A stretch of DNA of 64,000 bases from Vicinamibacterales bacterium (GTDB taxonomy: Bacteria > Acidobacteriota > Vicinamibacteria > Vicinamibacterales > UBA8438), in assembly GCA_029940535.1 (NCBI GenBank), contig JAPYUM010000001.1, forward strand, positions 76,773 to 140,772, given 5' to 3'. The notes under the pieces are model-generated. The model ran no database searches. It saw nothing but the letters and a program-made list of their open reading frames with translations, and was not told the origin of the DNA. Position 1 is the stretch's first letter. Every line of letters begins with the position of its first letter. Position numbers and translations under genes: made by a program. Positions 22,079 to 37,315 of this stretch are shown piece by piece.

Positions 22079-22423
22079 CTACGGAAGGCGCGGGTTACAT
22101 AACCGTTCTTGATCGCGGTATGCCTCGAACATGCGGAGCAGCCCATAGAAGACGACTCCTGAGCCGACATATGCGACTCGAGCCGGCGCTGGCCAAAGCC
22201 GACGTCCTAGTTCGGTGATGCGTTGGATTTCAACGGCAGAGAAGTGGAAGTACTCGCCAACGCCCCAAAGTCGGCGGTCCGACCCGCTCCGCCTGGCGAC
22301 CTCCTGGACCACGGCGAAAAGGTCGGGTAGCGAGAGCTGACGTTGGAGTCGGATCACGGTCACGCCGTCGAGTTCCTCCAGAACGTAGCGGGTGAGGCGG
22401 GAATCGCGACCGACTGGTTTCAC
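22079..22423 (-). CDS. Hypothetical protein (small alpha/beta, possibly STAS/SpoIIAA-like)
   Basis: 114-aa ORF whose GTG start overlaps the ankyrin gene stop (GTGA). No motif recognised. Confidence 0.4.
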   Translation of the reverse strand: MKPVGRDSRLTRYVLEELDGVTVIRLQRQLSLPDLFAVVQEVARRSGSDRRLWGVGEYFHFSAVEIQRITELGRRLWPAPARVAYVGSGVVFYGLLRMFEAYRDQERLCNPRLP

Positions 22424-24069
22424 GGCAGGTCGGCGCCGATCGGGATGTCACGCAGGCGCTCCTGAACGGTGCCTGGGATGCCCAAATGCGTGGCGGCTCC
22501 GAGCGCCGCTAGCAGCGCGGCGGTTTCCGGCCAGCTCTGGAACTGGAAGGACTGTTTGGCGCCCTCGGCCATCCGAAACGCCGTTCGTCCGCGGAAGTCT
22601 CGCGCGTCGACCGCGGCACCTCGCTCCACAAGGTAGGCGATGACCTCGTTCAGCCCGCGAAGCGCCGCGCCATGCAACGCCGTGAAGTCAGCTTCGTTGA
22701 CCGCGTTGACATCGGCGCCCGCCTCGACGAGGACCTGCACGGCTTGCTCCGCGCTCGGTGACCGGGTCCCGCGCGGCTCCCGCGGTCGATACGTGCAGCG
22801 ACCAAGTCCTGCGGCAGCCATCAAGGGTGTCGTGTCGTCATCGGTCCGCAGGTGGTGGTCGGCACCCGCTGCGAGCAGCGCCCGCAGGATCGCCGTGTTC
22901 TCGCCGCGGTTAGATGCATAGGCCGCCACCCACAGCGGCGTGGCACCCCGAATGTCTCCGGTGCCGCACGAGAACGGCTCGAACGCCCCCTTCGTCGGGT
23001 AGCCGATGTAACTCATGAACATGGCTGACGTCGTGATTCGCGCGTCCGGCAGGGCGCCTCGGGCGAGGAGTGCTTCGACGAGTGGCACACGACGCTCGGC
23101 CACGAGCGCGGTTCGCCCGATCCCGCCCCGAAGATACCCCGGGTCGCCGCCATGTCGTCTCGACCAGTCGTGCAGCCAAGTTCCGACGCTCCCCGCGGCG
23201 GCGTGCAGCGCACTCACCCCGCCCATCGAGCCGTTCGGATCGGCGCCGTGCTCGAGCAGAAACAGGGCAAACGCATCCTGGCGGTTGACAATGGCGTACG
23301 GCAGCACGTGCGTGTCATCCGACCCGGTCTCGTTGACGTCGACGCCAGCGGCCAGCAGTGTTTCCGCAAGCGCGATGTCGCCAGCGGCGGCGGCAAGCAG
23401 CAGCGGCGTGAAGCCGTCTGCCGTGGCGGCACCCGGCGCCGCGCCGCGGCTGAGCAGGAGGCGGGCAACCCCGTGATGAGACTCCGACACGGCCCACATC
23501 AACGCCGTGCTCCTGGTTGCCGTCGTCGCCGCATTGACCTCAGCGTCGGAGGCCAGCAGCGCCTCGACCACCTCGACACTCCCGGTTCGCGCGGCGGTCA
23601 TGAGCGGCGTCAGGCCACTGGTCTGGCTGTTGTTCGGGTTCGCTCCGGCCGCGAGCAGCGTCTGAACCATCAGCACGCTGGCGTTCTCGGCCGCCCGCCC
23701 GAGCGGGGTCACGCCATGATCATCGGCGGCATTGACGTTCGCGCCGGCACGCAGAAGCATGGCGGCCGCGTCCGAATCGTCCCAGTGGGCCGCCCAGAGA
23801 AGCGCCGTCGCGCCGTCGGCTCGCGCGGCGTTGACGTCGAGACCTTGTTCGACCAGTGTGAGCACGGTCCGGCGGTCCTGCGCCGCCGCGGCGCTCACGA
23901 GCCGCAGGTCCTGGCCGGCAGCCAGCCCGGCGCCCGTGCTGAAGACCAGCGCAACCACAGAGGCAACAACCCGCACCGCCCCACTATAGTCGACCCCGGA
24001 CGACCGGGCCGAATTTCGAGAGTCCTGCTCAGGGGTGGCCACGATGCTCGATATATTCCGACCGGTCAC
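22420..24069 (-). CDS. Ankyrin-repeat protein with N-terminal signal/anchor
   Basis: 549 aa. Hydrophobic segment VVASVVALVFSTGAGLAAG, then at least 10 ankyrin repeats (G.TALLWAA..., DHGVTPLGRAA, GLTPLMTAA, GFTPLLLAA, FTALHGAA...). Confidence 0.85.
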   Translation of the reverse strand: MTGRNISSIVATPEQDSRNSARSSGVDYSGAVRVVASVVALVFSTGAGLAAGQDLRLVSAAAAQDRRTVLTLVEQGLDVNAARADGATALLWAAHWDDSDAAAMLLRAGANVNAADDHGVTPLGRAAENASVLMVQTLLAAGANPNNSQTSGLTPLMTAARTGSVEVVEALLASDAEVNAATTATRSTALMWAVSESHHGVARLLLSRGAAPGAATADGFTPLLLAAAAGDIALAETLLAAGVDVNETGSDDTHVLPYAIVNRQDAFALFLLEHGADPNGSMGGVSALHAAAGSVGTWLHDWSRRHGGDPGYLRGGIGRTALVAERRVPLVEALLARGALPDARITTSAMFMSYIGYPTKGAFEPFSCGTGDIRGATPLWVAAYASNRGENTAILRALLAAGADHHLRTDDDTTPLMAAAGLGRCTYRPREPRGTRSPSAEQAVQVLVEAGADVNAVNEADFTALHGAALRGLNEVIAYLVERGAAVDARDFRGRTAFRMAEGAKQSFQFQSWPETAALLAALGAATHLGIPGTVQERLRDIPIGADLP

Positions 24070-24097
24070 CTTGTCTGGGTTCGGGAGAAAGCGGCGT

Positions 24098-24727
24098 TCA
24101 AGCCTCGTGGGAAGCGGCCAGACGTGAGGCGACCGAGCCCAAAGTCGCTGGCGTTGGAGCCTGAGCCCTCACGGCAAACGGCGCGCCGGGGTCCGGTTCG
24201 CGCGTGAGTGACCAGTCCGCCTCGCCTGACACCGTGTGTAGGAACGCCTCCAGAGCCGGACGGAACGCGGTCAAAGTCTCGGTCGTGTTCGGCGCGAGGA
24301 GGCGGTCGTTGGCGACGCACGCGATGTCGTTCCCCGCGAACCGCACCGGCCCAGGAAGCGTGGCGTCCGTTTCCAGCAGACGCGCAGCCTGCACCAGGGT
24401 ACGGCCAAGCCCTCCGAGCCTCTCGGCGAGTGGGCCCTCGAGCGGCCGGGTGCGTGTGTATTGGAAGCCGAGTCGACCGTCCGTCCGGTCGAGCGCGTAC
24501 TGGCCCTCGTGGGCGACCAGGAGCACCGACGGCCCGGTGGGTAAGTGTGTGTAGTCGGCCACGTCAATGAGGAGCCCGTCGACCGCCTGGGTCTGGATCC
24601 ATCGATGAAAGACCGGAATCACGTCACGTGGGTCGAGCGTCGAGTCGTCGGTGAGGAAGACCTTCAGGGCGATGCGCTGCAGGTCGTTGACGTGCGTCGA
24701 CGGGGTAGGCGTCGTCACGTCGTTCAC
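24098..24727 (-). CDS. Hypothetical protein translationally coupled to sulfite reductase
   Basis: Start placed at GTG 24727..24725, which overlaps the sir stop TGA 24726..24724 (GTGA). 209 aa with no recognised family. The ORF-track start at 24805 would lie inside sir. Confidence 0.5.
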   Translation of the reverse strand: MNDVTTPTPSTHVNDLQRIALKVFLTDDSTLDPRDVIPVFHRWIQTQAVDGLLIDVADYTHLPTGPSVLLVAHEGQYALDRTDGRLGFQYTRTRPLEGPLAERLGGLGRTLVQAARLLETDATLPGPVRFAGNDIACVANDRLLAPNTTETLTAFRPALEAFLHTVSGEADWSLTREPDPGAPFAVRAQAPTPATLGSVASRLAASHEA

Positions 24728-27012
24728 GAGGGTCTCCCCGCGCCGGTTGTCGCGTCCAAGGGCGGCGGCATCACGACCGGCTGGGCCGCGAGTCGGGCCT
24801 GACACGCATGGGTGGCCTCGACGAACAGCTGGGCTTCTTCGATGAGCTGTCGCGCGGTGTCGAGGCCGTCCGCCGGCGTGCTGCGCTCGTGGCGGCGGAA
24901 CAGGTATTGGGCGAACTTCCCACCGGCAAATCGATCGAAAAATATTTCGGTGTCGAAAAAACGGCGGCGAAATTCTGAGACGATCTGCTCCGCGTCGTCC
25001 GAGATGTCGATGTCCTCTGTCTTGATCAGCCCTCGGGCCGCCTGCAGCATGGCGCCGTAGGCGAGCGCGTCGGCTCGCTCGAAGTTCCCCTCCTCCAGCT
25101 GAAGTTGTCCTTCAAAAATCTGGCTCTCGGCGCCGGCCAGGTCGAACTCGGTCAGCGACACGACCTCGCCGGCGCACTCTCCGACCCCCATATCGCCGAT
25201 GCCGAACTCCCGAGGGTCGCCCCAGTCGCGATAGTAGCTGGCATCGACTTCGTGTGCCGGCACCGCCATGAGGTCGTCGAGCATGTCACGTAGGGCCCGC
25301 TTGCCGACCCGGGCCGTGAAGGCGTAGAAGCTTTCGGCGCCGTCGCGTTCCGCGACATAGCGGTCGGTGATGCGTCGTACGACCTCTGGAATGTTCTTGG
25401 ATGGCACCGCCGCGATCGCCAGTCCATACGCGCCGCCGTTGTCGACCCACTTCCCGCCCAGCACGACCTGGAAGTGCGCGACGACATGGCCACCCACGTG
25501 GCGGCTGACGCCGTAGAACCCGAGGTCGCTGATGTGGTGCTGCCCGCACGAGTTGAAACAGCCGCTGACCTTGATACGAAGCCGGCGCACCGACTCGTCC
25601 ATCGTGTCCAGCTGGTCGGCCAGCCGCCGCTCGAGCTCCGCCGCGAGCCCGCGTGACGACGCGATACCAAGCTTGCACGTGTCCGTGCCGGGGCACGCGG
25701 TGATGTCCGCGATCGATTCGGCCCCTGGTCGCGCCAGGCCGATCGCGTCGAGCTCGCCGTGCAGCGCGGGCAGGTCGGACTCGCGCACCCAGCGCAGCAC
25801 GATGTTTTGTTCGACGGTCGCCCGCACCGCGTCGCCGACGAAGCGCCGCGCCACGTCCGCCAGCTGCCGAAGCTGGTCGCTGCTGAGGTCGCCGAGTGGC
25901 AGGCTCACGGTCGCAGTGACGTATCCGGGTTGTCGCTGATGGTAGACGTTGGTCCGGGCCCAGGCCTGAAAGGCGGGCGAGCCAGCCTCATCTCCCAACG
26001 CCTGGCCGGTCTTGAGCGGCTGCTCGCCGTACGCCGGCAGGGCGTCCAGATATCCGGTCCAGCGGTCGTCTCCCGGCAGGGCGGCTCGTTCCTTCCGCAC
26101 CAGACGCCGAAATTCCTCGAGGCCGAGTTGCGCCACCAAGAACTTGATGCGGGCGCGGGCGCGATTCTTCTTCTCGCCCAACCGGGCGAACACCCGGGAC
26201 ATGGCCTGGAGTGTCGGCAGAATCTCGTCTTCCGCCATGAATGGTTCGAACAGCTTGGCCTCGTGTGGCACGGCGCCAAGTCCGCCACCCACATACACCT
26301 CGAAGCCGCGCTGCGTCACGCCGTCGACCTCTTTGGTCACCCCGATCGCGCCGAAGTCGTGCATGTTGACGAGTCCGCACGCGTGCTGCCGGCATCCGGA
26401 AAACGCCACCTTGAACTTGCGGCCGAAGTCCTGGGCGTCGGGGTGTCCGAGGAGAAAGCGCATGGACGCCTGCGCGTAGGGTGTGACGTCGAACGCCTCG
26501 TCGCGGCAGATGCCGGCGATCGGACAGGCGGTGACGTTGCGCACCGTGTTCCCGCACGCCTCACGCGTGGTGATGCCGACCGCCGCGAGCCGCCGCATCA
26601 AGTCCGGCGTGTCGTCGATGTGCACGTAGTGGAGCTGTATGTCCTGACGCGTCGTGATGTGCACGACCCGGTCGCTGTACTCCTCAGCCAGCTCGGCCAG
26701 GGTCTCCATCTGGTCGGTGGTGAGCCCGCCGAAGGGAATCTTGATCCGTTGCATCCCGGGAGCGTCCCAGACGGTGTCGGGTCCCTTGGTCTGTCCGCTC
26801 GATGGGAACGGCAGCGGTTTGACTCCAGTGCCGTCATTGCGCTGGCCGTTGTCGTAACGTTGCCCGTACGCCCCACGCCGCAGGCGGGTCTCGGCGAACA
26901 CCTTGTCGTCGATCTTGCCCTGTCGTTTCAGGGCCATCTGGTTCTCGTAGGTGTCGATCTCGCGTCCCAGATCGTCTGGCACGCGGTCGCCGAGAGCGTC
27001 CTTCCAGGTCAT
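24724..27012 (-). CDS. sir: Assimilatory sulfite reductase (ferredoxin-type, siroheme/4Fe-4S) with a ~200-aa C-terminal extension
   Basis: 762 aa. Two nitrite/sulfite-reductase ferredoxin-like half domains and the Fe-S/siroheme Cys motifs (TACPG.DTCK ... SGCFNSCGQHH). Context is cysH plus siroheme synthesis genes. Confidence 0.85.
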   Translation of the reverse strand: MTWKDALGDRVPDDLGREIDTYENQMALKRQGKIDDKVFAETRLRRGAYGQRYDNGQRNDGTGVKPLPFPSSGQTKGPDTVWDAPGMQRIKIPFGGLTTDQMETLAELAEEYSDRVVHITTRQDIQLHYVHIDDTPDLMRRLAAVGITTREACGNTVRNVTACPIAGICRDEAFDVTPYAQASMRFLLGHPDAQDFGRKFKVAFSGCRQHACGLVNMHDFGAIGVTKEVDGVTQRGFEVYVGGGLGAVPHEAKLFEPFMAEDEILPTLQAMSRVFARLGEKKNRARARIKFLVAQLGLEEFRRLVRKERAALPGDDRWTGYLDALPAYGEQPLKTGQALGDEAGSPAFQAWARTNVYHQRQPGYVTATVSLPLGDLSSDQLRQLADVARRFVGDAVRATVEQNIVLRWVRESDLPALHGELDAIGLARPGAESIADITACPGTDTCKLGIASSRGLAAELERRLADQLDTMDESVRRLRIKVSGCFNSCGQHHISDLGFYGVSRHVGGHVVAHFQVVLGGKWVDNGGAYGLAIAAVPSKNIPEVVRRITDRYVAERDGAESFYAFTARVGKRALRDMLDDLMAVPAHEVDASYYRDWGDPREFGIGDMGVGECAGEVVSLTEFDLAGAESQIFEGQLQLEEGNFERADALAYGAMLQAARGLIKTEDIDISDDAEQIVSEFRRRFFDTEIFFDRFAGGKFAQYLFRRHERSTPADGLDTARQLIEEAQLFVEATHACQARLAAQPVVMPPPLDATTGAGRPS

Positions 27013-27015
27013 GTG

Positions 27016-27780
27016 TCAGCCTTTCCCTTCGGCGGCGAGAGTGGACATGCCGACGTCACTGAGCACCGTGTGCAGGTCGACGACCTGCCCGACCACGATC
27101 GTGCCCGGGTCCTCCGTGGCGGCGGCGTCAGGTGTCTCGCCGAGGGTGCGGAGTGTGCCGATCCAGGTCCGTTCTCGCGAGCTCGCCGCCGCGAAAATCA
27201 CCGCGGCGGAGGTGTCCGCGGCCCACCCACGCTCCAGCAGGCAGGTCGCAATATCTCGTCGATGGGCCAGGCCCATCAGCACGACCACCGTGGCGGAGCC
27301 TGGCGCCAGTGAACTGAGGACAGGCCGGTAACTCGCGTCGTGATGCCCGGAGACGACAACGAATCCGGAAGCCAGGCCGCGATGCGTCAGCGGGACTCCG
27401 GCCGCGGCCGGCGCCGCGACCGCCGTCGTGATCCCCGGCACGACCTCGAAGGGGATCCCCGCGGCCCGGAGCGCCACGCCCTCTTCGGCGCCTCGACCCA
27501 GCACGTAGGGGTCGCCACACTTCAGCCGGACCACTCGTCGGCCACGTCGTGCCGCCCGAATCATGAGCCGCACGATGGTTTCTTGTTGTACGGACTTTCG
27601 GCCTGCGCGCTTGCCCACGCAGAACCGTTGGGCCTGGACGGCGAGTGCGACGACCTCCGGCGAGACCAGCGCATCGAACAGCACGAGGTCGGCGGCACGC
27701 AGACGATCGGCGGCCCGCACGGTCAGAAGGTCCGGATAGCCTGGACCCGCGCCCACCAACGAGACGAATCCACCAGACAT
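27016..27780 (-). CDS. cobA: Uroporphyrinogen-III C-methyltransferase (SUMT)
   Basis: 254 aa from ATG 27780. Motifs VGAGPGYPDLLTVRA and VVRLKCGDPYVLGRGAEE. The ORF-track N-terminal extension is rejected. Confidence 0.85.
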   Translation of the reverse strand: MSGGFVSLVGAGPGYPDLLTVRAADRLRAADLVLFDALVSPEVVALAVQAQRFCVGKRAGRKSVQQETIVRLMIRAARRGRRVVRLKCGDPYVLGRGAEEGVALRAAGIPFEVVPGITTAVAAPAAAGVPLTHRGLASGFVVVSGHHDASYRPVLSSLAPGSATVVVLMGLAHRRDIATCLLERGWAADTSAAVIFAAASSRERTWIGTLRTLGETPDAAATEDPGTIVVGQVVDLHTVLSDVGMSTLAAEGKG

Positions 27781-27782
27781 AG

Positions 27783-28358
27783 TCACCCTTGATCTTCGTA
27801 GAGACCGGACAGCGCTTGCAAGAGCAGGGGGCGCCGCTGCTCCATCGGTACATTTTCGCTGATCCAGGCGGCGCGTTGGACACGGGCGGTGGTCATCCAT
27901 CGTTCGACCTCCGGTTCCGGTAGCAGCGCTTCGAGCGCCTGCCGGACCAAACCGGCCAGCGCGGGGGCCTGGCCGTCGGTCGAGATGGCCACCGTGACCC
28001 CCCTCCGTCGGAAGACACCACCGAGATAGAGGCTCGCGTTCGTCGGGTCATCGACCGCGTTGACGAACACCTGCCGTTGTTCGGCCGCTTCCGCGACTTC
28101 GCGGTTGACGGCCGGGGGCGCTGCGGCCACCACCAGCCACGCGTCGTCGAGGTCAGCTGGTTCGAATCGTCGACGGCGTATCGACACGCGACTCGCCATG
28201 ATCTCTCCGGTGACCTCGGGCGCGACCACGGTCACCGCCGCGCCGACATCGAGCAGGCCCCTGAGCTTGGACGTTGCCACTGGTCCACCACCGACGACCA
28301 CCACGCGGCGACCGGTCAGCTTCAGGAAAGCGGGAAAGAGGGAGGCTGACGCGCTCAT
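27783..28358 (-). CDS. Precorrin-2 dehydrogenase / sirohydrochlorin ferrochelatase (CysG N-terminal / Met8 / SirC-like)
   Basis: 191 aa from ATG 28358. FPAFLKLTGRRVVVVGGGPVATSKL Rossmann motif, typical of the siroheme synthase N-domain. Confidence 0.75.
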   Translation of the reverse strand: MSASASLFPAFLKLTGRRVVVVGGGPVATSKLRGLLDVGAAVTVVAPEVTGEIMASRVSIRRRRFEPADLDDAWLVVAAAPPAVNREVAEAAEQRQVFVNAVDDPTNASLYLGGVFRRRGVTVAISTDGQAPALAGLVRQALEALLPEPEVERWMTTARVQRAAWISENVPMEQRRPLLLQALSGLYEDQG

Positions 28359-28392
28359 ACGAAATGGCGTCGGGCGGTGCCGGTATCGGTTC

Positions 28393-29400
28393 TCAGGACC
28401 GGACCCCGGCGTGACCGACCTCTGTGGCTCCGTCGACATTGGCATGGAGACCACACTCCGTCTTGGCGGTACCCCGCCAGCGGCCGGCGCGATCGTCTTC
28501 GCCAGCGTTCACGCGGCTCGTGCAGGGCAGACAGCCGACGCTCGGGTAGCCGAGGTCGTGAAGCGGATTGTATGGCACGTCGTGCTCGAGCAGGTGGGCC
28601 CACACGTTTCTCGTTGTCCAGCGGACCAGTGGATTCACCTTGGCGAGTCCGAATTTCTCGTCCCACTCGACCGGCCGCGCGTCGGCGCGACGGTCTGTCT
28701 GGTCGCGACGTATGGCGGTAATCCAGCCGTCGAACTGGCTCAGTTGCGCCACCAGCGGGGTGACCTTGCGCATGTCGCAGCATCGATCCGGCTCGCGCGC
28801 CCACAGTTCCGGGCCATGCACGGCTGCCTGCTGTTCGACCGACAGTTCGGGGCCCACGCGGCGTATGGTGATGCCATAGCGGGTCTCGAGCCGCTTCCAC
28901 AGGTCGTAGGTCTCCGGAAAGAGGAGGCCCGTGTCCAGCGTGAAGATGTCGACGGGAAGACGGTGCCGCCCGACCATGTCGATCAGGGCACATCCTTCGG
29001 CTCCGAAACCGGTGGCGAAGGTCAGTCGGGGGCCGTATCTGTCGGTCGCCCACCGCAGAATCTCGAGCGGCGTGTCGGTTTCCAGCACGCGGCCGGCTTC
29101 AGCCACGGCCGTCGGGTCTGGACTGGTGAGAGTGTCGGTCATTCCGGTTGGTGAGGCCAGCGCGGGTACGCCGGTCGGATGGGAGCCGGCAATCGGTTTT
29201 CGCCCCACGTTCAACCGGTTCCACAGCCGCTCATGGAAGTAATACAGCACCATCTTGCTCGCCGCTTCCAGGAGCCCGATGGTGACCGCGAGGTCGGTGC
29301 GACCGGTGAAGGCGTACACCAGGAGCGTGGTGGTCAGCGTAGCCAGGACGCGCCACGAGACTGCCTTGATCATCGAGCGCGCTGCTGATTCTTCGAACAT
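28393..29400 (-). CDS. cysH: Fusion of a DUF2061-like membrane domain with Fe-S-type adenylylsulfate (APS) reductase
   Basis: 335 aa from ATG 29400 (SD GAGGAGAAGG upstream). The N-terminal ~90 aa (KAVSWRVLATLTTTLLVYAFTG...KMVLYYFHERLWNRL) match my recollection of DUF2061. The C-terminal CysH domain has CC (DRCCDMRKV) and CxxC (GCLPCT) cluster ligands and the catalytic ECGLH. Confidence 0.85.
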   Translation of the reverse strand: MFEESAARSMIKAVSWRVLATLTTTLLVYAFTGRTDLAVTIGLLEAASKMVLYYFHERLWNRLNVGRKPIAGSHPTGVPALASPTGMTDTLTSPDPTAVAEAGRVLETDTPLEILRWATDRYGPRLTFATGFGAEGCALIDMVGRHRLPVDIFTLDTGLLFPETYDLWKRLETRYGITIRRVGPELSVEQQAAVHGPELWAREPDRCCDMRKVTPLVAQLSQFDGWITAIRRDQTDRRADARPVEWDEKFGLAKVNPLVRWTTRNVWAHLLEHDVPYNPLHDLGYPSVGCLPCTSRVNAGEDDRAGRWRGTAKTECGLHANVDGATEVGHAGVRS

Positions 29401-29449
29401 CGTGCCTTCTCCTCGCCCGTGCGACGGAGTCAAAAGTCGCGGTCCACAC

Positions 29450-29482
29450 AAAAAAAGCCCGAGAGCGTGTGGCTCCCGGGCT
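29450..29482 (-). terminator. Intrinsic terminator inside the cysH leader (attenuator terminator)
   Basis: Minus-strand RNA reads AGCCCGGGAGC-CACAC-GCUCUCGGGCU followed by U7. The single non-Watson-Crick pair is G-U on the minus-strand RNA but A-C on the plus strand, so the structure is strand-specific. It ends 45 nt before the cysH ATG, and no upstream minus-strand gene needs terminating. Confidence 0.65.
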
Positions 29483-29506
29483 TCGGTCATTCGCGTTTTG
29501 ATATTT

Positions 29507-29605
29507 TCAGTCTTTTACAGACGTCACGCGCGGCACGACCGTCAGCTCGGGGGCCCAGAGGACCACCGGACAACAGCAACATCGACAGGCAGCGCGTGTG
29601 TGCAT
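29507..29605 (-). CDS. Cysteine-rich leader peptide (32 aa), putative attenuator sORF
   Basis: ATG 29605..29603 to TGA 29509..29507 gives MHTRAACRCCCCPVVLWAPELTVVPRVTSVKD. Codons 7-12 are TGT CGA TGT TGC TGT TGT. Too short for the ORF track. There is an in-frame GTG two codons upstream, and the SD is weak. Confidence 0.55.
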   Translation of the reverse strand: MHTRAACRCCCCPVVLWAPELTVVPRVTSVKD

Positions 29606-29619
29606 CGTCACGTTCTCTT

Positions 29620-29649
29620 ATCTTCGTCCACCGAGTGAGTATGCGTCAA
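29620..29649 (-). promoter_or_regulatory. Possible promoter for the cys leader
   Basis: TTGACG (29649..29644), 18-nt spacer, GAAGAT (29625..29620). This would give a very short or nearly leaderless 5' end for the sORF. Weak -10. Confidence 0.2.
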
Positions 29650-29729
29650 GCTGGGCCGGGACGGCGTCCAATTCTTCACGCCGCGGGCGGTGCGAACGGC
29701 GCTTGACGAACTGGTACACTGCGCTCGCG

Positions 29730-30503
<774 letters not shown>

Positions 30504-30616
30504 ACGGCACTGTCAACGGTGGGCGCCGGCCTGGCGTGTGGGGTCCCGGTTTCTCGCGTGCTGCGGCGTGGCACGGACCCTGCGGTCCGTTCGTCGTGGC
30601 GTTGGGGTCGACGACG

Positions 30617-30903
30617 TATCAGCCGCGGCAGCCTGCGCAGACGGTCTTGCATCAGGTGGTGCGCGACCACCTCGAGACGTTCCTGACGCCGGCGGCCACC
30701 TTGCGGGACGGCGAGGGCGTGCCCGGGTGTTCATAGAAGAGGAGTTCCGTCGTTTTCTCCGGTGTGGCGCGCTCGGCGGTGGCTTCACCCGGTTCCGGTG
30801 CTCCGGGTGCGGCTTCGACCGGCTGGTGCCGTTCTCGTGTCGAGGGCGCGGGTTCTGCCAGAACTGCCGCGGCCGCCGCATGGTCGAGCGGGCGGCACAC
30901 CTG
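30617..30903 (+). pseudogene. IS91-family transposase N-terminal (Zn-binding domain) fragment, frameshifted and truncated
   Basis: Frame 1 reads YQPRQPAQTVLHQVVRDHLETFL...GEGVP. Frame 2 reads FIEEEFRRFLRCGALGGGFTRFRCSGCGFDRLVPFSCRGRGFCQNCRGRRMVERAAHL. This is the Zn_Tnp_IS91 pattern; the catalytic part is absent. Confidence 0.6.
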
Positions 30904-31232
30904 CCTCAATCACCGCTCCACAAATCCGCCGGTGCCCCCGAAAATCGACCTGTTGCGCTCAGCTGGGTCCGATAGTGAGCGTGATGATAACCGGCACAGC
31001 GGGGGGATCCGAACCCCGGGGGCGCTCTAATGTGTCCTATGTTCTCTGTGATGTTCCTTCTTATAGAAATTGGATATTTACGGAATCATTGAAACTTCCT
31101 CCTCCAACGGGCGAGTATGCGAATGTCAACGCAAAATACCATCTGAAGGCTTTACAGTGACACGCACAGTGCCCGTTACTGGCGCGGACGGAGTGGCGGC
31201 GGCGGCACGTAGTAGGTGTGCATCACCGTGTT

Positions 31233-32693: not shown

Positions 32694-33971
32694 TCAGACG
32701 ATCATTCCTGCCGCTACGGCCTCGTTTGTCTGCTCGTCGATCAGGACGAAACTGCCAGTCGTGCGATTGCGGTTATAACGATCGTAGAAGAGCGGCGCCG
32801 ACGTGCGCAGCGAGATGCGGCCGATCTCGTTCAGGCCAAATTCGGGGTCGCCCTCGATCTTGTGCAGCGTGTTGATGTCGACCTTGAAGCGGATGTCCCG
32901 TACGACGGCCCGGACCTCCTTGGTCGTGTGACGGAGCGCATACTTGCCTCTCGACACCAGAGGGCGCTCTGAAAACCAACAGATCATCGCCTCGATATCC
33001 TGGTCGACCCGGGGTGGGTTGTTCGGCTTGACGATCATGTCGCCCCGGCTGATGTCGATGTCGTCATCCAGCGTGATCGTGACGGACAGTGGGCTGAACG
33101 CCTCCTCGATCTGGCCGTCGAAGGTCTCGATAGCCGACACGTGGGTGGCGAACCCGCTCGGTAGAACCAGCACCTCGTCGCCCGGTTTGAAGACCCCGCC
33201 AGCGACCCGCCCCGCGTAGCCGCGAAAGTCTGGATGCGTGTCCGATTGCGGCCGGATCACCCACTGGACGGGGAAGCGCGCGTCCACGTGGTTTTCCTCG
33301 GACCCGACGTACACCGTTTCGAGGTGATGAAGCAGAGTGGGACCGCCGTACCATGGCATCTGGTCCGACGTGGCGACGACGTTGTCCCCGCGCAGGGCGC
33401 TGATCGGGATGAACGTGATTTCGACGATGTTGTCCAGGCGCGACGCGAAATCCTGGAACTCGGCGACGATCGCCTCGTATGTTTCCTCCTGGTAGTCCAC
33501 CAGATCCATCTTGTTCACCGCCACCACGGCATGCTGAATACGAAGCAGGTTGGCAATGAAGGCGTGACGGCAGGTCTGTTCGATCACGCCCTTCCTCGCG
33601 TCAATCAGGATGATGGCGAGGCTGGCGGTCGATGCACCCGTCACCATGTTGCGCGTGTACTGCATGTGTCCCGGGGTGTCGGCGATGATGAACTTGCGTC
33701 GCGGCGTCGCGAAGTAGCGGTAGGCCACGTCGATGGTGATCCCCTGCTCGCGCTCGGCGCGCAGGCCATCGGTCAGCAACGCGAGGTTGAGGTGCTCGTC
33801 GCCGCGCTTGCGGCTCGACTCCTCCATCGCCTCGAGCTGGTCTTCGAAGATGCTCTTGCTGTCGTACAGCAGCCGCCCGATCAGGGTGCTTTTTCCGTCG
33901 TCGACACTGCCCGCGGTCGTGAACCGCAGCAGATCCATTTCCATGTAACCCGCGCTCTCGCTCGTGGACAC
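32694..33971 (-). CDS. cysN: Sulfate adenylyltransferase subunit 1 (GTPase)
   Basis: 425 aa. G-domain motifs GSVDDGKST, DTPGH and NKMD, plus EF-Tu-like domains. No fused APS kinase domain. Confidence 0.9.
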   Translation of the reverse strand: MSTSESAGYMEMDLLRFTTAGSVDDGKSTLIGRLLYDSKSIFEDQLEAMEESSRKRGDEHLNLALLTDGLRAEREQGITIDVAYRYFATPRRKFIIADTPGHMQYTRNMVTGASTASLAIILIDARKGVIEQTCRHAFIANLLRIQHAVVAVNKMDLVDYQEETYEAIVAEFQDFASRLDNIVEITFIPISALRGDNVVATSDQMPWYGGPTLLHHLETVYVGSEENHVDARFPVQWVIRPQSDTHPDFRGYAGRVAGGVFKPGDEVLVLPSGFATHVSAIETFDGQIEEAFSPLSVTITLDDDIDISRGDMIVKPNNPPRVDQDIEAMICWFSERPLVSRGKYALRHTTKEVRAVVRDIRFKVDINTLHKIEGDPEFGLNEIGRISLRTSAPLFYDRYNRNRTTGSFVLIDEQTNEAVAAGMIV

Positions 33972-34876
33972 TAGAAATAGCCTTCCTTCTTGCGATCCTC
34001 CATGGCGGACTCCGAGCGCTTGTCGTCCGAGCGCGTCCCACGCTCGGTTTCGCGAGCGGCGGCGACTTCCGCGATGATGTCGTCCAGTGAGGTCGCGGCT
34101 GAGTCCACCCCGCCGGTACAGGTCATGTCGCCGATGGTGCGGAACCGGACGGTTCGTTCTTCTGAGGTTTCGTCCGGCTGGACCCGCACCACATCAGACA
34201 CTGCCAGCAAAGACCCGTGGCGATCGACGACTTCGCGCCGGTGCGAGAAATAGAGGCTCGGGAGGTCGATCGCCTCGTGTTTGATGTATTGCCAGACGTC
34301 CATTTCCGTCCAATTGCTCAGAGGGAAGACGCGGAAGTGCTCCCCATGGTGATGCCGTCCGTTGAACAGGTTCCACAATTCGGGACGTTGTCCCTTGGGA
34401 TCCCACTCCCCGAAGTCGTTGCGGTGGGAGAAGAACCGCTCTTTGGCACGAGCCTTTTCCTCGTCTCGTCGACCGCCGCCGAGCGCGGCGTCGAACTGGT
34501 GGGTCTCGATGGCGTCGAGCAGCGTCACGGTCTGCAGCTTGTTGCGGCTCGCATGAATGCCCTGCTCCTCGACGACCCGGCCCTTGTCGATGGAGTCCTG
34601 CACATACGCCACGACGAGGCTGGCGCCGATCTCCTTCACGAAGCGGTCGCGGAACTCGATGGTCTCGGGAAAATTGTGGCCGGTGTCCACGTGGAGCAAC
34701 ATGAACGGGATGCGCGCCGGGTGGAAAGCCTTTCGGGCCAGATGCGCCATGACGATGGAGTCTTTGCCACCAGAAAACAGGAGTGCCGGGCGATCGAACT
34801 GAGCCGCGGTCTCCCGCAACACGAAGATCGCTTCAGACTCCAACTGCCGGACGTGGTTGAGCTTGTAGGACCGCAT
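33971..34876 (-). CDS. cysD: Sulfate adenylyltransferase subunit 2
   Basis: 301 aa. PAPS-reductase/ATP-PPase fold (LLFSGGKDS) with a conserved CysD C-terminus. 1-nt overlap with cysN. Confidence 0.9.
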   Translation of the reverse strand: MRSYKLNHVRQLESEAIFVLRETAAQFDRPALLFSGGKDSIVMAHLARKAFHPARIPFMLLHVDTGHNFPETIEFRDRFVKEIGASLVVAYVQDSIDKGRVVEEQGIHASRNKLQTVTLLDAIETHQFDAALGGGRRDEEKARAKERFFSHRNDFGEWDPKGQRPELWNLFNGRHHHGEHFRVFPLSNWTEMDVWQYIKHEAIDLPSLYFSHRREVVDRHGSLLAVSDVVRVQPDETSEERTVRFRTIGDMTCTGGVDSAATSLDDIIAEVAAARETERGTRSDDKRSESAMEDRKKEGYF

Positions 34877-34915
34877 GTGGACTATGTCGATGAGAGTCCG
34901 AGCCGGAATCCCAGT

Positions 34916-35551
34916 CTATTTTTCGCCGGGTCGCGAGTCTCGCGGGTCGATCAGGGGGCGCACGATCTGATACAGCGTATCGGTTGAATCTTCGACGGTC
35001 GTGTGCTCGGTATCGATGACGACGACGTCGCCGACGTCTGCGTCAGGTTCTTCGAAGAGGGAATCTCTTCCCGTGAAATCCTTCACGCCTCCGGCCTTCG
35101 CCTTCGCATACAGTCCCTTGACGTCGCGGGCGGCGCAGGCGGCGAATGAGGCCTTCACGTAGATTTCCCGGAAGTCCGGAGCTCCGACGATGTCGCGCGC
35201 CATGGCCCGCAGCTCCCGCGTCGGCGTGATAAACGCGGCAAGCGTGACGATTCCGGTTTCGGCGAAGAGCTTGGCCACCTCGCTGATGCGCCGGATGTTC
35301 TCGAGGCGGTCCGCGTCCGAGAAACCGAGCCCGCGACTGAGGCCAGTGCGAATGTTGTCGCCGTCCAGCAGGCGCGTGAGGACGCCTTCTCCATGCAAAC
35401 GCCTTTCCAGGGCGTGGGCCAGGGTGCTCTTTCCTGAACCAGACAGGCCATACAGCCAGAAGACTCGACCACGCTGGCCGAGGACGTGTTCCTTGGCCTC
35501 GCGCCCCAACATGCGATGAAACTCGGGGTGTATGTCGTCGTCACGAGGCAT
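34916..35551 (-). CDS. cysC: Adenylylsulfate (APS) kinase
   Basis: 211 aa from ATG 35551. P-loop GLSGSGKSTLA, LDGDNIR and FISP-like FITP motifs. Confidence 0.85.
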   Translation of the reverse strand: MPRDDDIHPEFHRMLGREAKEHVLGQRGRVFWLYGLSGSGKSTLAHALERRLHGEGVLTRLLDGDNIRTGLSRGLGFSDADRLENIRRISEVAKLFAETGIVTLAAFITPTRELRAMARDIVGAPDFREIYVKASFAACAARDVKGLYAKAKAGGVKDFTGRDSLFEEPDADVGDVVVIDTEHTTVEDSTDTLYQIVRPLIDPRDSRPGEK

Positions 35552-35593
35552 GGAACTAGCTATCATAACGCCCGAACGTCCGGCGGATGCCGC

Positions 35594-35618
35594 GGCGCCT
35601 CGTCGGAAAACCCAGGAG
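35594..35618 (+). promoter_or_regulatory. Shared 5' UTR module, copy 1 (GGCGCCTCGTCGGAAAACC-C-AGGAG)
   Basis: 24 of 25 nt identical to 37286..37310. Contains the SD and lies 9 nt upstream of GTG 35628. Confidence 0.5.
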
Positions 35619-35627
35619 TGCCAGACC

Positions 35628-36230
35628 GTGATCAGTTCTGCCGATCGATTCCAGCGCGCGGTTGACCGGTTCGACGCCGCGAACGCCGAGGACCCCAACG
35701 ACGACCTAGTCAACGGTGTCGCGCAGCCGCGAGAGCTGGTCTACGCGCGCCGGATGACCGCCTGTCTGGACCGGTATCGCCCGGACGCCCCCGAGCCGGT
35801 GCGCCTCGCGGCCCGGTGTCAGCACATTCGTCGCTGGACCAGCGCCCGGGCCGACTACGCCGACGGACGGGACGGCTATCGGCAGTGGCGCACGGAGTTG
35901 GCCCGGTTTCATGCGTCGACGGCCGCCGCCATTCTTCGAGACGTCGGCTACGACGATGCGGTGGTCGCGCGAGTCGAGTCGCTCCTGCGGAAGGAGCAGC
36001 TCAAGGCCGACCCGGACGTGCAGCTGCTCGAGGACGTTATCTGCCTCGTGTTCCTCGCCCACTATCTCGCCGACTTCGTATCCAAGCACGACGACGATAC
36101 GCTGTTGGGCGTGTTGGCCAAGACCTGGCGAAAGATGTCCGACGAGGGGCGTCTGGCCGCCCTCGCGCTCGACTTGCCGGCCGCCCCGCGCGCCTTGGTC
36201 GAACGGGCGGTGAGGCTCACCAGTCGCTGA
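35628..36230 (+). CDS. Hypothetical protein (resembles the family I recall as DUF4202)
   Basis: 200 aa from GTG 35628. Conserved-looking core CQHIRRWTSARADYADGRDGYRQWRTELARFHA. Divergent from cysC. Confidence 0.5.
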   Translation: MISSADRFQRAVDRFDAANAEDPNDDLVNGVAQPRELVYARRMTACLDRYRPDAPEPVRLAARCQHIRRWTSARADYADGRDGYRQWRTELARFHASTAAAILRDVGYDDAVVARVESLLRKEQLKADPDVQLLEDVICLVFLAHYLADFVSKHDDDTLLGVLAKTWRKMSDEGRLAALALDLPAAPRALVERAVRLTSR

Positions 36231-36249
36231 GTCTGCGCGACCGACCCCG

Positions 36250-37209
36250 TCACGATGCCTGAGAGGGGGGCGTGGGAGGTGGCGCGTCGTCGGCGGGCGA
36301 TCGGCTCCACCACGCCGCGGCCAGACTGCCGATGAGCGAGTGTGCGACGGTGGAGATCGCGCTGGGGATGGCGACCAGCGGGTTCGCGAAGTTACCGCGG
36401 GCCAGCACGACGCCGAGACCCGAGTTTTGCATCCCGACCTCGATGGCGACGGTGCGCGCGCCGGTTTCTCGCCCCAGCGCGACCTTGCCGGCGAGATAGC
36501 CGAACAGAAACCCGAAGAGATGCAGGCCAAACACCGCGACCAGCAGTCGAAGGCCAGCCTCCAGGATCTGCTCTCGTCCGGCACCAACGACCGAGGCGAC
36601 GATCAGGGTGATGGTGAGCATGGCCACCAGGGGGGCGACTGGCAACACCAGTTCGATGACACGAGGAAAGCGCCACTTGAGCAGCGCGCCTGCTACCACC
36701 GGCAGCACCACCACCTGTACCGTGTCGAGAAAGAGGCCAGTAGCGGAGACGTCGATGCGGTTGCCGGCCAGGAGCGCGGTCAACGTCGGGGTCATCAGGG
36801 CCGCGAGTAGCGTAGACAGGACCGTCATGGTGACCGACAGGGCCACGTCCGCCTTCGCCAGATAGGAAATGACGTTCGACGCGGTGCCGCCGGGACAGCA
36901 GGACAGCAGGACGAGCCCGACCGCGAACGGCGTGGGTAAGGCCAGGAGATAGCCGAGGCTCCATCCCAGCGCCGGCATCACCGTATATTGCAGAAGCACA
37001 CCGGGGAGCACGCGGCTCCGCTCTCTCCCGATGCGTCGGAAATCGTCAAAACCGAGCGTCATCCCCATGCTGAGCATGATGATGCCCAAGCCGACGGTGA
37101 TGAGTGAGCCGCTGAACCACGTGAAGAGTGTGGGGCGAACCAGCGCCAACGCGCCGCAGATGAGCACCCAGAACGGAAATGCTTCGGTGAGAAACGCGAG
37201 TATTCGCAA
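36250..37209 (-). CDS. Bile acid:sodium symporter (BASS) family transporter
   Basis: 319 aa, about 9-10 TM segments. Motifs GLVLLSCCPGGTASN and EVGMQNSGLG are typical of BASS/ACR3-like carriers. Confidence 0.8.
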   Translation of the reverse strand: MRILAFLTEAFPFWVLICGALALVRPTLFTWFSGSLITVGLGIIMLSMGMTLGFDDFRRIGRERSRVLPGVLLQYTVMPALGWSLGYLLALPTPFAVGLVLLSCCPGGTASNVISYLAKADVALSVTMTVLSTLLAALMTPTLTALLAGNRIDVSATGLFLDTVQVVVLPVVAGALLKWRFPRVIELVLPVAPLVAMLTITLIVASVVGAGREQILEAGLRLLVAVFGLHLFGFLFGYLAGKVALGRETGARTVAIEVGMQNSGLGVVLARGNFANPLVAIPSAISTVAHSLIGSLAAAWWSRSPADDAPPPTPPSQAS

Positions 37210-37285
37210 GACCGGTCACATTGTATAGCGCGGCACGGTCCTGCCCGCCCCACGCCTCCGACCGACGAAGCAACGCCGCCAGACG

Positions 37286-37310
37286 GGCGCCTCGTCGGAA
37301 AACCAAGGAG
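37286..37310 (+). promoter_or_regulatory. Shared 5' UTR module, copy 2 (GGCGCCTCGTCGGAAAACC-A-AGGAG)
   Basis: 24 of 25 nt identical to 35594..35618. Lies 5 nt upstream of ATG 37316. Confidence 0.5.
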
Positions 37311-37315
37311 AGTCC

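Follow-up and report, generated by a model that had tools for sequence, protein, structure and literature searches.

A candidate cysteine-sensing leader-peptide attenuator upstream of the sulfate-assimilation genes of Vicinamibacterales (Acidobacteriota)

Introduction

Acidobacteriota are abundant in soils and oceans, and to our knowledge almost nothing is known about how their genes are regulated. As far as we know, experimental knowledge of polycysteine sensing by the ribosome comes from mycobacteria only, where it acts on translation. Earlier surveys listed predicted attenuators in Acidobacteriota without an assigned function (PMC2965389). The question raised by the present locus, which lies in a window of 64,000 nucleotides from the genome of a soil/marine acidobacterium of the Vicinamibacterales, is whether a short leader ORF (sORF) with a run of cysteine codons and an intrinsic terminator, both located in front of cysH, together adjust the expression of the sulfate-to-sulfide genes to the supply of cysteine.

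A preliminary description of the window had proposed a terminator-based Cys attenuator in a non-actinobacterial genome. The proposal is supported by about 55 relatives, by a test of the reading frame, and by covariation in the terminator, while the function is a predicted one. It is likely that the leader is a classical ribosome-mediated transcription attenuator sensing charged tRNA-Cys, and its predicted role is most likely to switch the sulfate-to-sulfide genes on when cysteine is short.

The locus and its downstream genes

The features of the leader and of the genes behind it are listed in Table 1. The gap between cysH and cysQ is 329 nt long, one less than first counted, with the start of cysQ at ATG 29730. 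The names given earlier to both genes held up: cysQ scores above the cut-off of TIGR01331, and the cysH product combines a DUF2061 and a PAPS_reduct domain and scores 248.6 bits with NCBIfam NF002537 (cut-off 154). The sulfite reductase matches the NCBIfam NirA/sir models with scores below their cut-offs. An operon of 7 to 8 genes had been described; four genes are clear downstream of the leader, and the operon perhaps extends to six.

Table 1. Features of the cysH leader and the genes downstream of it (coordinates count from the first base of the window).
Feature	Coordinates	Strand	Basis
-35 box TTGACG of leader promoter	29644..29649	-	read from sequence; conserved position among relatives
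-10-like box GAAGAT (predicted), 18 nt downstream of -35 box	29620..29625	-	inferred from relatives
Leader sORF, 34 codons from GTG 29611 (32 from in-frame ATG 29605), stop TGA 29509-29507	29507..29611	-	ORF list; start spacing as in relatives
Cys codon run TGT CGA TGT TGC TGT TGT, 5 Cys in 6 codons; proposed ribosome-stalling site	29570..29587	-	read from sequence
P1-ext hairpin (regions 1:2): 5' strand UUGU.CGG.GGUCC 29573-29560, loop UCU, 3' strand GGGCC.CCG.GC.GA 29556-29542	29542..29573	-	RNAalifold consensus
P-mid hairpin CGGUCGU..CGCG (loop with stop codon) CGCG.AUGACCG	29484..29541	-	MFE folds, -17.4 kcal/mol
Antiterminator (regions 2:3): P-mid extended outward, taking up the terminator left arm	29468..29557	-	MFE of truncated transcript, -37.7 kcal/mol; covariation
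Intrinsic terminator (regions 3:4): 13-bp stem 29484-29472 with 29466-29454, loop CACAC, U7 29456-29450	29450..29484	-	folding, -23.2 kcal/mol; covariation
Shine-Dalgarno of cysH, GAGGAGAAGG	29405..29414	-	read from sequence; outside every leader helix
cysH, DUF2061::CysH fusion (phosphoadenylyl-sulfate reductase), first gene under candidate control	28393..29400	-	Pfam PF09834 + PF01507; NCBIfam NF002537
Siroheme synthase N-terminal-type gene (precorrin-2 dehydrogenase/ferrochelatase)	27783..28454	-	PF13241, PF14824; TIGR01470
Uroporphyrinogen-III C-methyltransferase (CobA/SirA type)	27016..27900	-	PF00590
Sulfite reductase, NirA/Sir family, 762 aa	24724..27012	-	PF01077, PF03460

A family of leaders in Vicinamibacterales

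About 55 homologous leaders were found in genomes of Vicinamibacterales (Acidobacteriota) and in marine metagenomes. PolyCys sORFs upstream of cysH recur in the Vicinamibacterales genomes, and a DNA-pattern scan of metagenomes yielded 37 further loci with 40 leaders. Throughout this collection the Cys run, a promoter-proximal start, the terminator, and the alternative pairing recur together upstream of sulfur-assimilation operons. Conservation of the run and of the hairpin in relatives had been suggested as a check; both are kept in the approximately 55 leaders, and the terminator covaries. The genes downstream of the family leaders are cysH, cysG-N, cobA, and sir, a sat-cysC fusion, and TauE, which suggests that the cysH-sir, sat-cysC, and TauE operons form a cysteine regulon. 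A second structural class (L020-L022) has an unrelated sequence but equal topology, with the Cys run kept and a long, clear antiterminator.

Searched with the covariance model of the family (R1), 58 cysH loci of other lineages (Planctomycetota, Abditibacteriota, Blastocatellia, and others) all lacked the leader. A match at locus L077 was rejected, being a coding region plus its own terminator. Further copies of the leader within the 64-kb window, including upstream of the cysC-cysD-cysN operon, were not found. The leader reached the gathering threshold of no Rfam family when searched at permissive E-values, as anticipated by the preliminary description, which had recognised no known riboswitch; the sole matches, on the opposite strand, were at chance level (14.6 bits, threshold 70, E-value 5.9; 12.3 bits, threshold 50, E-value 2.4).

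Promoter and reading frame of the leader sORF

In essentially all members of the family, TTGAC(G) is kept at the equivalent relative position. The -10 boxes of the relatives read TACAAA, TAGAAT, AAGAAT, or CACAAT at a spacing of 17-19 nt. A simple sigma-70 scan did not call the leader promoter of the window because its -10 box is weak.

The sORF had been taken to run from ATG 29605 (peptide MHTRAACRCCCCPVVLWAPELTVVPRVTSVKD, minus strand) to TGA 29507. The ORF and its stop do exist; its start, however, is probably GTG 29611, since this codon lies 8 nt past the -10-like box, the spacing typical of the family. In most leaders the start codon usually stands 8-9 nt past the predicted -10 box and no Shine-Dalgarno sequence is seen. 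There is no room for one upstream of the start, so the sORF looks leaderless-like. Leaderless initiation in the host bacteria is an assumption.

Direct reading of the minus strand confirms five Cys in six consecutive codons (29587-29585 and 29581-29570). With the Cys frequency of 1.2% in the genes of the window, the chance of at least five Cys codons in six is about 1e-9 per position, which speaks against a chance feature, and a search of the 64-kb window for other intergenic Cys-run sORFs returned none. The same nucleotides might also be misread, as UGUUGCUGUUG gives UUG CUG UUG in the +2 frame, in which the window holds an ATG-initiated ORF (ATG 29582, MLLLSGG...), so that the element might sense leucine or nothing. 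The position of the start codon bears on this: one lying 4-12 nt past the -10 box and open to the run was found for the Cys frame in all 47 leaders, but for each of the other frames in none of the 47. The Leu-frame and Val/Ala-frame readings were rejected on this ground. In addition, one leader (L014) has a stop codon in the Leu frame inside the run, and the downstream genes all belong to sulfur assimilation. A chance or leucine origin of the run is scarcely credible. On the statistical basis of 47/47 against 0/47 start codons, the Cys frame is established as the one that would be translated.

Each leader of the family has 3-7 Cys codons at positions of about 7-17, the length of the run changing by whole codons, and the diverged members retain Cys in patterns such as CSCSCVC. 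The Cys codons of the leaders are UGU in 122 cases and UGC in 54, against 49 UGC and 21 UGU in the genes of the window.

An ORF that is conserved and apparently translated could also be kept for its product. The sORF would then encode a functional Cys-rich micropeptide, for example a metal- or redox-active one or an arrest peptide, transcribed together with the sulfur genes; the hairpin, on this view, would be no more than a leaky terminator of the ordinary kind. Cys-rich peptides are able to bind metals, and the residues past the Cys run look conserved within each clade. Between clades, however, the translation of the core GGGCCCCCGNGCYGACGG differs (WAPELTV in one, GPRADGR in another); the C-termini, the length of the peptide (24-37 aa), and its Cys count all vary; and the element precedes several different sulfur operons. 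A micropeptide function is therefore considered very unlikely. Since the reading frame of the conserved core changes from clade to clade, selection on it is judged to act at the level of the RNA rather than the peptide.

Terminator, antiterminator, and the competing helices

The terminator hairpin, GAAGCCCGGGAGC-CACAC-GCUCUCGGGCUUU (29484-29454, minus strand), is GC-rich. The hairpin and U7 tract were correctly recognised at the outset, although the stem is longer than stated, with 13 bp instead of 11 bp; its lone G-U pair, which would be A-C on the plus strand, was also rightly noted. The terminator is conserved in all members of the leader family, where pairing stands at 96-98% and changes at 4-5 pairs are compensatory, and many G-U pairs across the family make it specific to the leader strand. 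A simple terminator scan found 2 hits against 1.2 expected in 1.5 kb, a count that by itself is not significant; the significance of the terminator comes from its conservation among relatives.

The output could alternatively lie in translation, if a stalled ribosome opened up a fold masking the ribosome-binding site of cysH and termination were irrelevant. Leaderless polyCys sORFs act in this way in Mycobacterium smegmatis (10.1101/834739), and in some relatives the downstream start codon is just 13-16 nt past the U-tract. In the window, however, the Shine-Dalgarno sequence lies 36 nt beyond the end of the U-tract, where 45 nt had been given as its distance from the hairpin, and it is unpaired in the predicted folds. 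Moreover, every member has a GC-rich stem directly before the U-run, with compensatory changes, which is the signature of an intrinsic terminator. Such a translational switch seems most improbable here.

Two further helices precede the terminator. The 5' strand of P1-ext begins within the last two Cys codons, and the hairpin, whose free energy alone is -12.8 kcal/mol in the window, is paired in 97-98% of cells; its loop differs in length and sequence, and the diverged members show a few compensatory changes. P1-ext is almost invariant, so its pairing is hardly tested by covariation. In P-mid, the GG:CC core pairs in 50 of 53 sequences and the flanking pairs in about 60-80%, and the partners in the inner stem co-change in several lineages.

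The antiterminator is the MFE structure of the window transcript truncated before the 3' arm of the terminator. Its pairs are GCU 29546-29544 with AGC 29482-29480, CCCG 29551-29548 with CGGG 29478-29475, and UGGGC with GCC.A.CA. The supported register joins CCCG/GCU/CGGUC (29551-29537) to GACCG/AGC/CGGG (29488-29475). The extension is 96% paired, whereas slid controls stay below 40%. Two pairs covary (58-134, UA 24 / CG 22; 54-138, GC 42 / AU 5), which probably represents only a handful of independent events. This register is preferred to the competing pairing CUCUGGGC:GCCCGGGAG put forward initially, which shows no covariation, whose loop-derived pairs are broken in 30-50% of the 55 leaders and whose outer pairs are often broken; moreover, GCCCGGGAG is located at 29481-29473, not at 29482-29474.

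Equilibrium folding of the full-length leader yields the terminator state in every case, also when region 1 is masked, so any switching has to come from kinetics. Among truncated transcripts, 41 of 43 leaders had the terminator's left arm sequestered when a ribosome was placed on the final Cys codon. The figure without a ribosome was 25 of 43, these being leaders in which the antiterminator is already the MFE structure; the shuffle control is, however, also high. When the upstream sequence was shuffled, at least 8 bases of the left arm were sequestered in 58% of trials, compared with 93% observed, and these statistics are weak because a GC-rich arm usually finds some partner. The z-score of the whole-leader fold is only -1.6.

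The conservation of this structured region invites another explanation, namely that the RNA core functions as a switch, either a riboswitch or one that binds protein, on which a sulfur metabolite or a regulatory protein acts to control the terminator directly, the sORF being incidental or secondary. The leader contains several stacked helices, and hardly any variation is seen in its core of about 40 nt (GGNGGCCC-loop-GGGCCCCCGNGCYGACGG), though the CysH proteins of the hosts are only 58-81% identical, a conservation that exceeds the usual need of simple hairpins. It can nevertheless be explained by the three overlapping pairing constraints 1:2, 2:3, and 3:4. A riboswitch also leaves the start-codon bias towards the Cys frame unexplained, as well as a run that varies by whole codons and outlasts the divergence of the sequence, and its retention, together with the topology, in the second leader class; Rfam has no family for it. 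Such a switch is quite unlikely. Also unlikely, if conceivable, is a combination of both inputs. The core (GGNGGCCC-loop-GGGCCCCCGNGCYGACGG plus ACGCGARAGACCGAA) would be conserved beyond the need of the three helices because it binds a second input, a sulfur metabolite or a protein, giving with stalling at the Cys codons a hybrid dual-input switch; in Vicinamibacteria this switch, and not a CysB-type transcription factor, would govern the entire regulon of assimilatory sulfate reduction.

Proposed mechanism

For the cysteine attenuator, which is the preferred reading, we infer the transcription start, translation, stalling, termination, and the response to cysteine from sequence, and the steps may be described as follows. 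Transcription would begin a few nucleotides before GTG 29611, so that no Shine-Dalgarno sequence would be involved in translation of the sORF. With Cys-tRNA in good supply, the ribosome would pass the Cys codons and then sit at the stop-codon region, in the terminal loop of the antiterminator; alternatively, it may already have left, and the local P1-ext hairpin (29573-29542) would re-form. In either case region 2 would be unavailable, the terminator (29484-29454) with its U7 tract would fold, and the polymerase would stop before cysH. When Cys-tRNA is scarce, the ribosome would stall at the UGU/UGC codons (29587-29570) and cover the 5' strand of P1-ext. Region 2 (29557-29529), freed by the stall, could then pair with 29495-29468 to form the long antiterminator, which would consume the left arm of the terminator, and the polymerase would read on into cysH, the siroheme genes, and the sulfite reductase gene.

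Comparison with known systems

In the enterobacterial attenuators (trp, his, leu, thr, pheA, ilv), transcription is controlled through leader peptides that contain codons for the regulatory amino acid. The present leader resembles them in several respects: its short ORF has a run of codons for the end-product amino acid, the predicted 1:2, 2:3, and 3:4 helices exclude one another, an intrinsic terminator stands ahead of the first structural gene, and the stop codon is located, as predicted here, where a terminating ribosome would block the antiterminator. The genes downstream of the family leaders (cysH, siroheme, sulfite reductase, sat-cysC, TauE) likewise serve the biosynthesis of the putatively sensed amino acid. 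It differs from them in that it is predicted to sense cysteine, targets sulfate-assimilation and siroheme genes, and belongs to a host of the Acidobacteriota (Vicinamibacterales). Its sORF, unlike theirs, is leaderless-like, lacking a Shine-Dalgarno sequence and starting 8-9 nt past the -10 box, and its stop codon sits in the antiterminator loop. There is no sequence homology to the enterobacterial leaders, and the Rfam leader families are unmatched.

S-box (SAM) riboswitches and T-box leaders, found at sulfur and cysteine genes of Firmicutes, sense SAM or uncharged tRNA directly by RNA structure. They share with the present leader a decision between terminator and antiterminator in the 5' leader of sulfur-metabolism operons, and T-boxes also read tRNA charging; they do so, however, without a translated sORF, and the present leader has no Rfam match.

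Leaderless polycysteine sORFs of mycobacteria constitute the 'Cys ribulon' (Canestrari et al. 2020, 10.1101/834739), and these attenuators had been predicted earlier by Seliverstov et al. 2005 (PMC1262725). In the case studied, the stalled ribosome frees the downstream ribosome-binding site, so that control is translational and involves no conserved terminator (10.1101/834739). In both systems a polyCys sORF at the 5' end of the mRNA (the start being predicted here) precedes operons of cysteine and sulfur metabolism. In both, a lineage has several independent copies, which form a regulon read out, by prediction in the present case, through ribosome stalling. The present leader differs from the mycobacterial ones in its output, a covarying intrinsic terminator with an antiterminator, and it occurs in another phylum with unrelated sequences.

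The nearest predicted analogue is the uORFC-8-2 motif upstream of cysS in Rhodobacterales, for which ribosome-mediated attenuation of transcription has likewise been predicted (Brewer et al. 2021, PMC8632094). Its Cys codons are conserved and lie within a stem, and it has a terminator with a U-run, as predicted for the present leader too. However, its Cys codons are only two, in tandem at positions 14-15 and within the first of two stems, and it controls a cysteinyl-tRNA synthetase gene rather than biosynthesis genes, in alphaproteobacteria and with another structure.

A literature search with incomplete coverage turned up no account of a polyCys terminator attenuator in Acidobacteriota or at sulfate-assimilation genes. 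Attenuation by a leader peptide is a classic device, and its use for the sulfate-to-sulfide pathway and in this phylum appears not to have been previously described.

Implications

A concrete mechanism is hereby proposed for the sulfate-to-sulfide pathway of a whole order, in which a multi-operon cysteine regulon (cysH-sir, sat-cysC, TauE) could operate without the need for a transcription factor. It also appears that polyCys sensing arose independently, by convergent evolution, with transcription termination as its output and with a leaderless-type sORF. The covariance model R1, which gives a single strong match in the window (125.9 bits), recovers 8 leaders outside its training set with E-values from 6e-15 to 6e-32. 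Together with the sequence pattern, it may be used to annotate such leaders and to flag sulfur-regulated genes whose function is unknown, for instance those for DUF2061 and PF03601 membrane proteins.

The leader sORF and its neighbourhood

Reading of positions 29250-29800 confirmed the minus-strand sORF, its Cys run, and the following hairpin with U7 that had been noted in the preliminary description, as well as the strand asymmetry of the hairpin, whose sole G-U pair becomes an A-C mismatch on the opposite strand. Given a Cys frequency of 1.2% in genes of the window itself, five Cys in six codons has an expectation of ~1e-9 per position, and no other intergenic Cys-run sORF was found elsewhere in the 64-kb window. 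The sORF has no called gene in GCA_029935955.1 and GCA_029936055.1, both of which carry the window's contig. An Rfam search of the leader gave no match, in agreement with the earlier remark that no known riboswitch was recognised in it.

The flanking cysH and cysQ genes were confirmed by Pfam, NCBIfam, and TIGR01331 matches; from the start of cysQ, the gap between them is 329 nt rather than 330 nt. Past cysH lie a siroheme-synthase N-terminal-type gene, a uroporphyrinogen methyltransferase, and a 762-aa sulfite/nitrite-reductase-family protein. No convincing terminator was found between this operon and the genes at 22420-24805, and the 235-aa ORF and the ankyrin-repeat gene may be co-transcribed with it. 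The operon has four sure genes, perhaps six, not the seven to eight first proposed. A plus-strand ORF (30364-30975) partly overlapping the cysQ 3' end has an IS91-type transposase zinc-binding domain (PF14319, E 6.6e-11) and is possibly a transposase remnant.

Coordinates of the leader elements, neighbouring genes, and compared loci
Feature	Position	Strand	Details
Leader sORF	ATG 29605 to TGA 29509-29507	-	product MHTRAACRCCCCPVVLWAPELTVVPRVTSVKD
Cys codons	TGT 29587-29585; CGA; TGT TGC TGT TGT 29581-29570	-	sequence reading
P1-ext	5' strand 29573-29560; 3' strand 29556-29542	-	5' strand begins within last two Cys codons; 3' strand GGGCC.CCG.GC.GA; RNAalifold
P-mid	29541-29484	-	CGGUCGU..CGCG (loop with stop codon) CGCG.AUGACCG; -17.4 kcal/mol
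Antiterminator extension	29546-29544 : 29482-29480; 29551-29548 : 29478-29475	-	GCU : AGC; CCCG : CGGG; more into terminator loop; fold
Terminator hairpin	29484-29454; U7 29456-29450	-	GAAGCCCGGGAGC-CACAC-GCUCUCGGGCUUU; 13 pairs, 8 G-C
DUF2061::CysH (downstream)	29400-28393	-	PF09834 + PF01507; NCBIfam phosphoadenylyl-sulfate reductase above cut-off
CysQ (upstream, divergent)	starts 29730		TIGR01331 above cut-off
235-aa ORF	24098-24805	-	no family match; overlaps sulfite reductase gene end
Ankyrin-repeat protein	22420-24069	-	549 aa
Second sulfur-activation operon	32694-37209	-	SBF-family transporter 36250-37209; unassigned ORF 35706-36587; cysC (APS kinase) 34916-35713; cysD 33971-34876; cysN 32694-33971
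Second-class leaders	L020 2677-2871; L021 2669-2863; L022 2782-2977		sORF ...VICCCCCSARFSRNL...
Paired leaders	L086 1160-2339; L091 4852-6032; L092 4935-6115

A conserved leader family

The nearest CysH relatives, searched with the CysH protein as query and one genome per species, are Vicinamibacterales (Acidobacteriota) MAGs. Scanning of the relatives' upstream regions revealed a polycysteine sORF in the same position in loci L001-L008, L013, and L016, and one of a different form in L020-L022. The aligned leaders share a TTGACG -35 box, a -10-like box with the start codon directly after it, and the Cys run. Next comes a core that barely varies (GGNGGCCC-loop-GGGCCCCCGNGCYGACGG), and the stop codon lies in the variable stretch beyond it; ACGCGARAGACCGAA and a GC-rich terminator with its U-run complete the leader. 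A DNA pattern derived from the core yielded 37 more metagenome loci (40 leaders), mainly from deep-ocean samples. A covariance model trained on 40 leaders has a single strong match in the window (29448-29596, minus strand, 125.9 bits) and retrieves eight untrained leaders upstream of TauE-cysH operons (L009-L011, L014, L015, L017-L019; E-values 6e-15 to 6e-32); on 58 cysH loci from other lineages it found nothing.

Reading frame and translation

In its other two frames, UGUUGCUGUUGU would encode Leu-Leu-Leu or Val-Ala-Val. In 47 leaders, the three frames were tested for a start codon 4-12 nt past the predicted -10 hexamer with an uninterrupted frame as far as the run; the Cys frame passes in 47/47 and each other frame in 0/47. 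A Leu-frame ORF starting at ATG 29582 in the window (29487-29582, minus strand; product MLLLSGGPLGPRADGRAARDVCKRLKISKRE) overlaps the sORF and enters the terminator left arm. Only close relatives of the window with CGATG ahead of the run share this ORF, and the family-wide test lends it no support (0/47).

Since the start codon mostly lies 8-9 nt past the -10 box, there is no space for a Shine-Dalgarno sequence, which suggests leaderless or near-leaderless initiation, as judged from promoter spacing. The ORF first described stands, with its probable start moved from ATG 29605 to the in-frame GTG two codons upstream (29611), which is 8 nt past the -10 box, fits the family spacing, and gives 34 codons.

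The Cys codon number ranges from 3 to 7, changing in whole-codon steps, and diverged leaders retain cysteines in patterns such as CSCSCVC. A one-base difference in the preceding hairpin loop shifts the frame, so that one clade reads the conserved core as WAPELTV and another as GPRADGR; therefore, conservation acts on the RNA, not the peptide, which argues against the sORF product being a functional micropeptide or arrest peptide. UGU outnumbers UGC in the leaders (122 vs 54), whereas the genes of the 65% GC window have 21 vs 49. Slower wobble decoding and pairing constraints would each account for this preference, which could raise Cys-tRNA sensitivity or be a by-product of the pairing of these bases in P1-ext.

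Alternative RNA structures and proposed mechanism

RNAalifold on the 40-leader alignment predicts P1-ext (regions 1:2) and the terminator (3:4). In a 55-leader alignment, the terminator shows 96-98% pairing; 4-5 of its pairs carry compensatory changes, and strand-specific G-U pairs are numerous. The Cys-run sORF and terminator with covariation that the preliminary description had proposed to seek in related genomes exist as a family. P1-ext is 97-98% paired and nearly invariant, so that covariation says little of it.

When cut ahead of the terminator's 3' arm, the window transcript is predicted to fold into a long hairpin that consumes the terminator left arm. This antiterminator (2:3) extends P-mid outward; across 53 distinct leaders the extension is 96% paired, against <40% for slid-partner controls, and its covariation comprises two pairs (UA 24 / CG 22; GC 42 / AU 5) with a limited number of independent events. 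The competing pairing originally suggested, CUCUGGGC:GCCCGGGAG, has no covariation and is broken at its loop-derived positions in 30-50% of members; this register was dropped, the two covarying pairs being found instead in 29551-29544 : 29482-29475. Sequestration of the GC-rich arm (93% observed) is also high with shuffled upstream sequence, at 58% of trials.

Folding had been proposed as a test for mutually exclusive structures. In truncated transcripts, the antiterminator is the MFE structure in 41/43 leaders with a stalled ribosome, but already in 25/43 without one. The equilibrium fold is the terminator state in every case, and masking of region 1 does not alter this. The window energies (P1-ext + P-mid, -30.2 kcal/mol; antiterminator before region 4, -37.7; terminator state once region 4 is made, -53.4) fit a kinetic switch.

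The layout is that of a textbook 1:2 / 2:3 / 3:4 attenuator. Stalling on the Cys codons would leave the ribosome over the P1-ext 5' strand, and region 2, now free, would build the antiterminator ahead of region 4 transcription. At the stop codon, the ribosome would sit in the antiterminator loop (in some clades, on its 5' strand) and block that structure, and after release the local P1-ext could re-form; in both cases the terminator would fold. From these sequence features, the leader is quite probably a Cys-tRNA-sensing transcription attenuator, which upholds the earlier terminator-based reading in substance.

The second-class leaders L020-L022 are unrelated to the first class in the sequence of hairpin, antiterminator, and terminator; nevertheless, their order (Cys run, local hairpin, region 2, stem with the stop codon in its loop, terminator) is the first-class topology. 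In these leaders region 2, GGAACCUCCGGGCCCG, is almost perfectly complementary to the terminator left arm, and its pairing with CGGGCCCGGAUGGUUC makes a very clear antiterminator.

Relation to known systems

The proposed mechanism is that of the classical enterobacterial attenuators, and the leader probably belongs among the leader-peptide transcription attenuators in general. Actinobacterial cysteine leader peptides were predicted without terminators (PMC1262725), and in Mycobacterium smegmatis leaderless polycysteine sORFs control translation by unmasking a downstream ribosome-binding site (10.1101/834739). In Rhodobacterales, a terminator-coupled Cys-codon uORF was predicted ahead of cysS (uORFC-8-2, PMC8632094). 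The present leader would act like these elements but belongs to neither group: it differs from the mycobacterial family in having a terminator and no sequestered SD, and from uORFC-8-2 in gene, taxon, and codon pattern. Within the literature, which was incompletely covered, there was no polycysteine terminator attenuator for sulfate assimilation and none in Acidobacteria. The family is well supported and apparently undescribed, although its proposed mechanism is a classical one and sORFs that sense cysteine are already known. With it, a major pathway of a poorly understood phylum gains a concrete regulatory logic, and polycysteine sensing appears to have evolved convergently with a different output.

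Genes downstream of the leaders

The leaders precede DUF2061 (separate or fused) with cysH, cysG-N, cobA, and sulfite reductase; cysH alone; a sat-cysC fusion (ATP-sulfurylase + APS-kinase domains); TauE/SafE-family permeases; and a PF03601 membrane protein. Therefore, one device probably controls several assimilatory sulfate reduction operons, comparable to the mycobacterial cysteine 'ribulon' idea. On three marine metagenome contigs, two leaders lie ~1.1 kb apart on opposite strands between divergent sulfur operons, one before a sat-cysC fusion and the other before a DUF2061- or TauE-cysH-siroheme-sulfite-reductase operon. Upstream of the window's own cysC-cysD-cysN operon (37210-37315), no Cys sORF, terminator, or covariance-model match was found; the leader is confined to the reduction branch in this genome.

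The small predicted membrane protein DUF2061 forms a fusion with CysH in the window and in the nearest relatives; in most other family members (relatives L081-L115) it is a separate ORF of ~90 aa with a 4-nt overlap with cysH. That it constantly accompanies cysH under a Cys leader suggests that it takes part in sulfur assimilation. At locus L109 (minus strand), the ORF 22-1318 nt past the terminator is not cysH but encodes a 432-aa membrane protein of family PF03601 ('conserved hypothetical 698'), which is therefore a candidate transporter of sulfur compounds.
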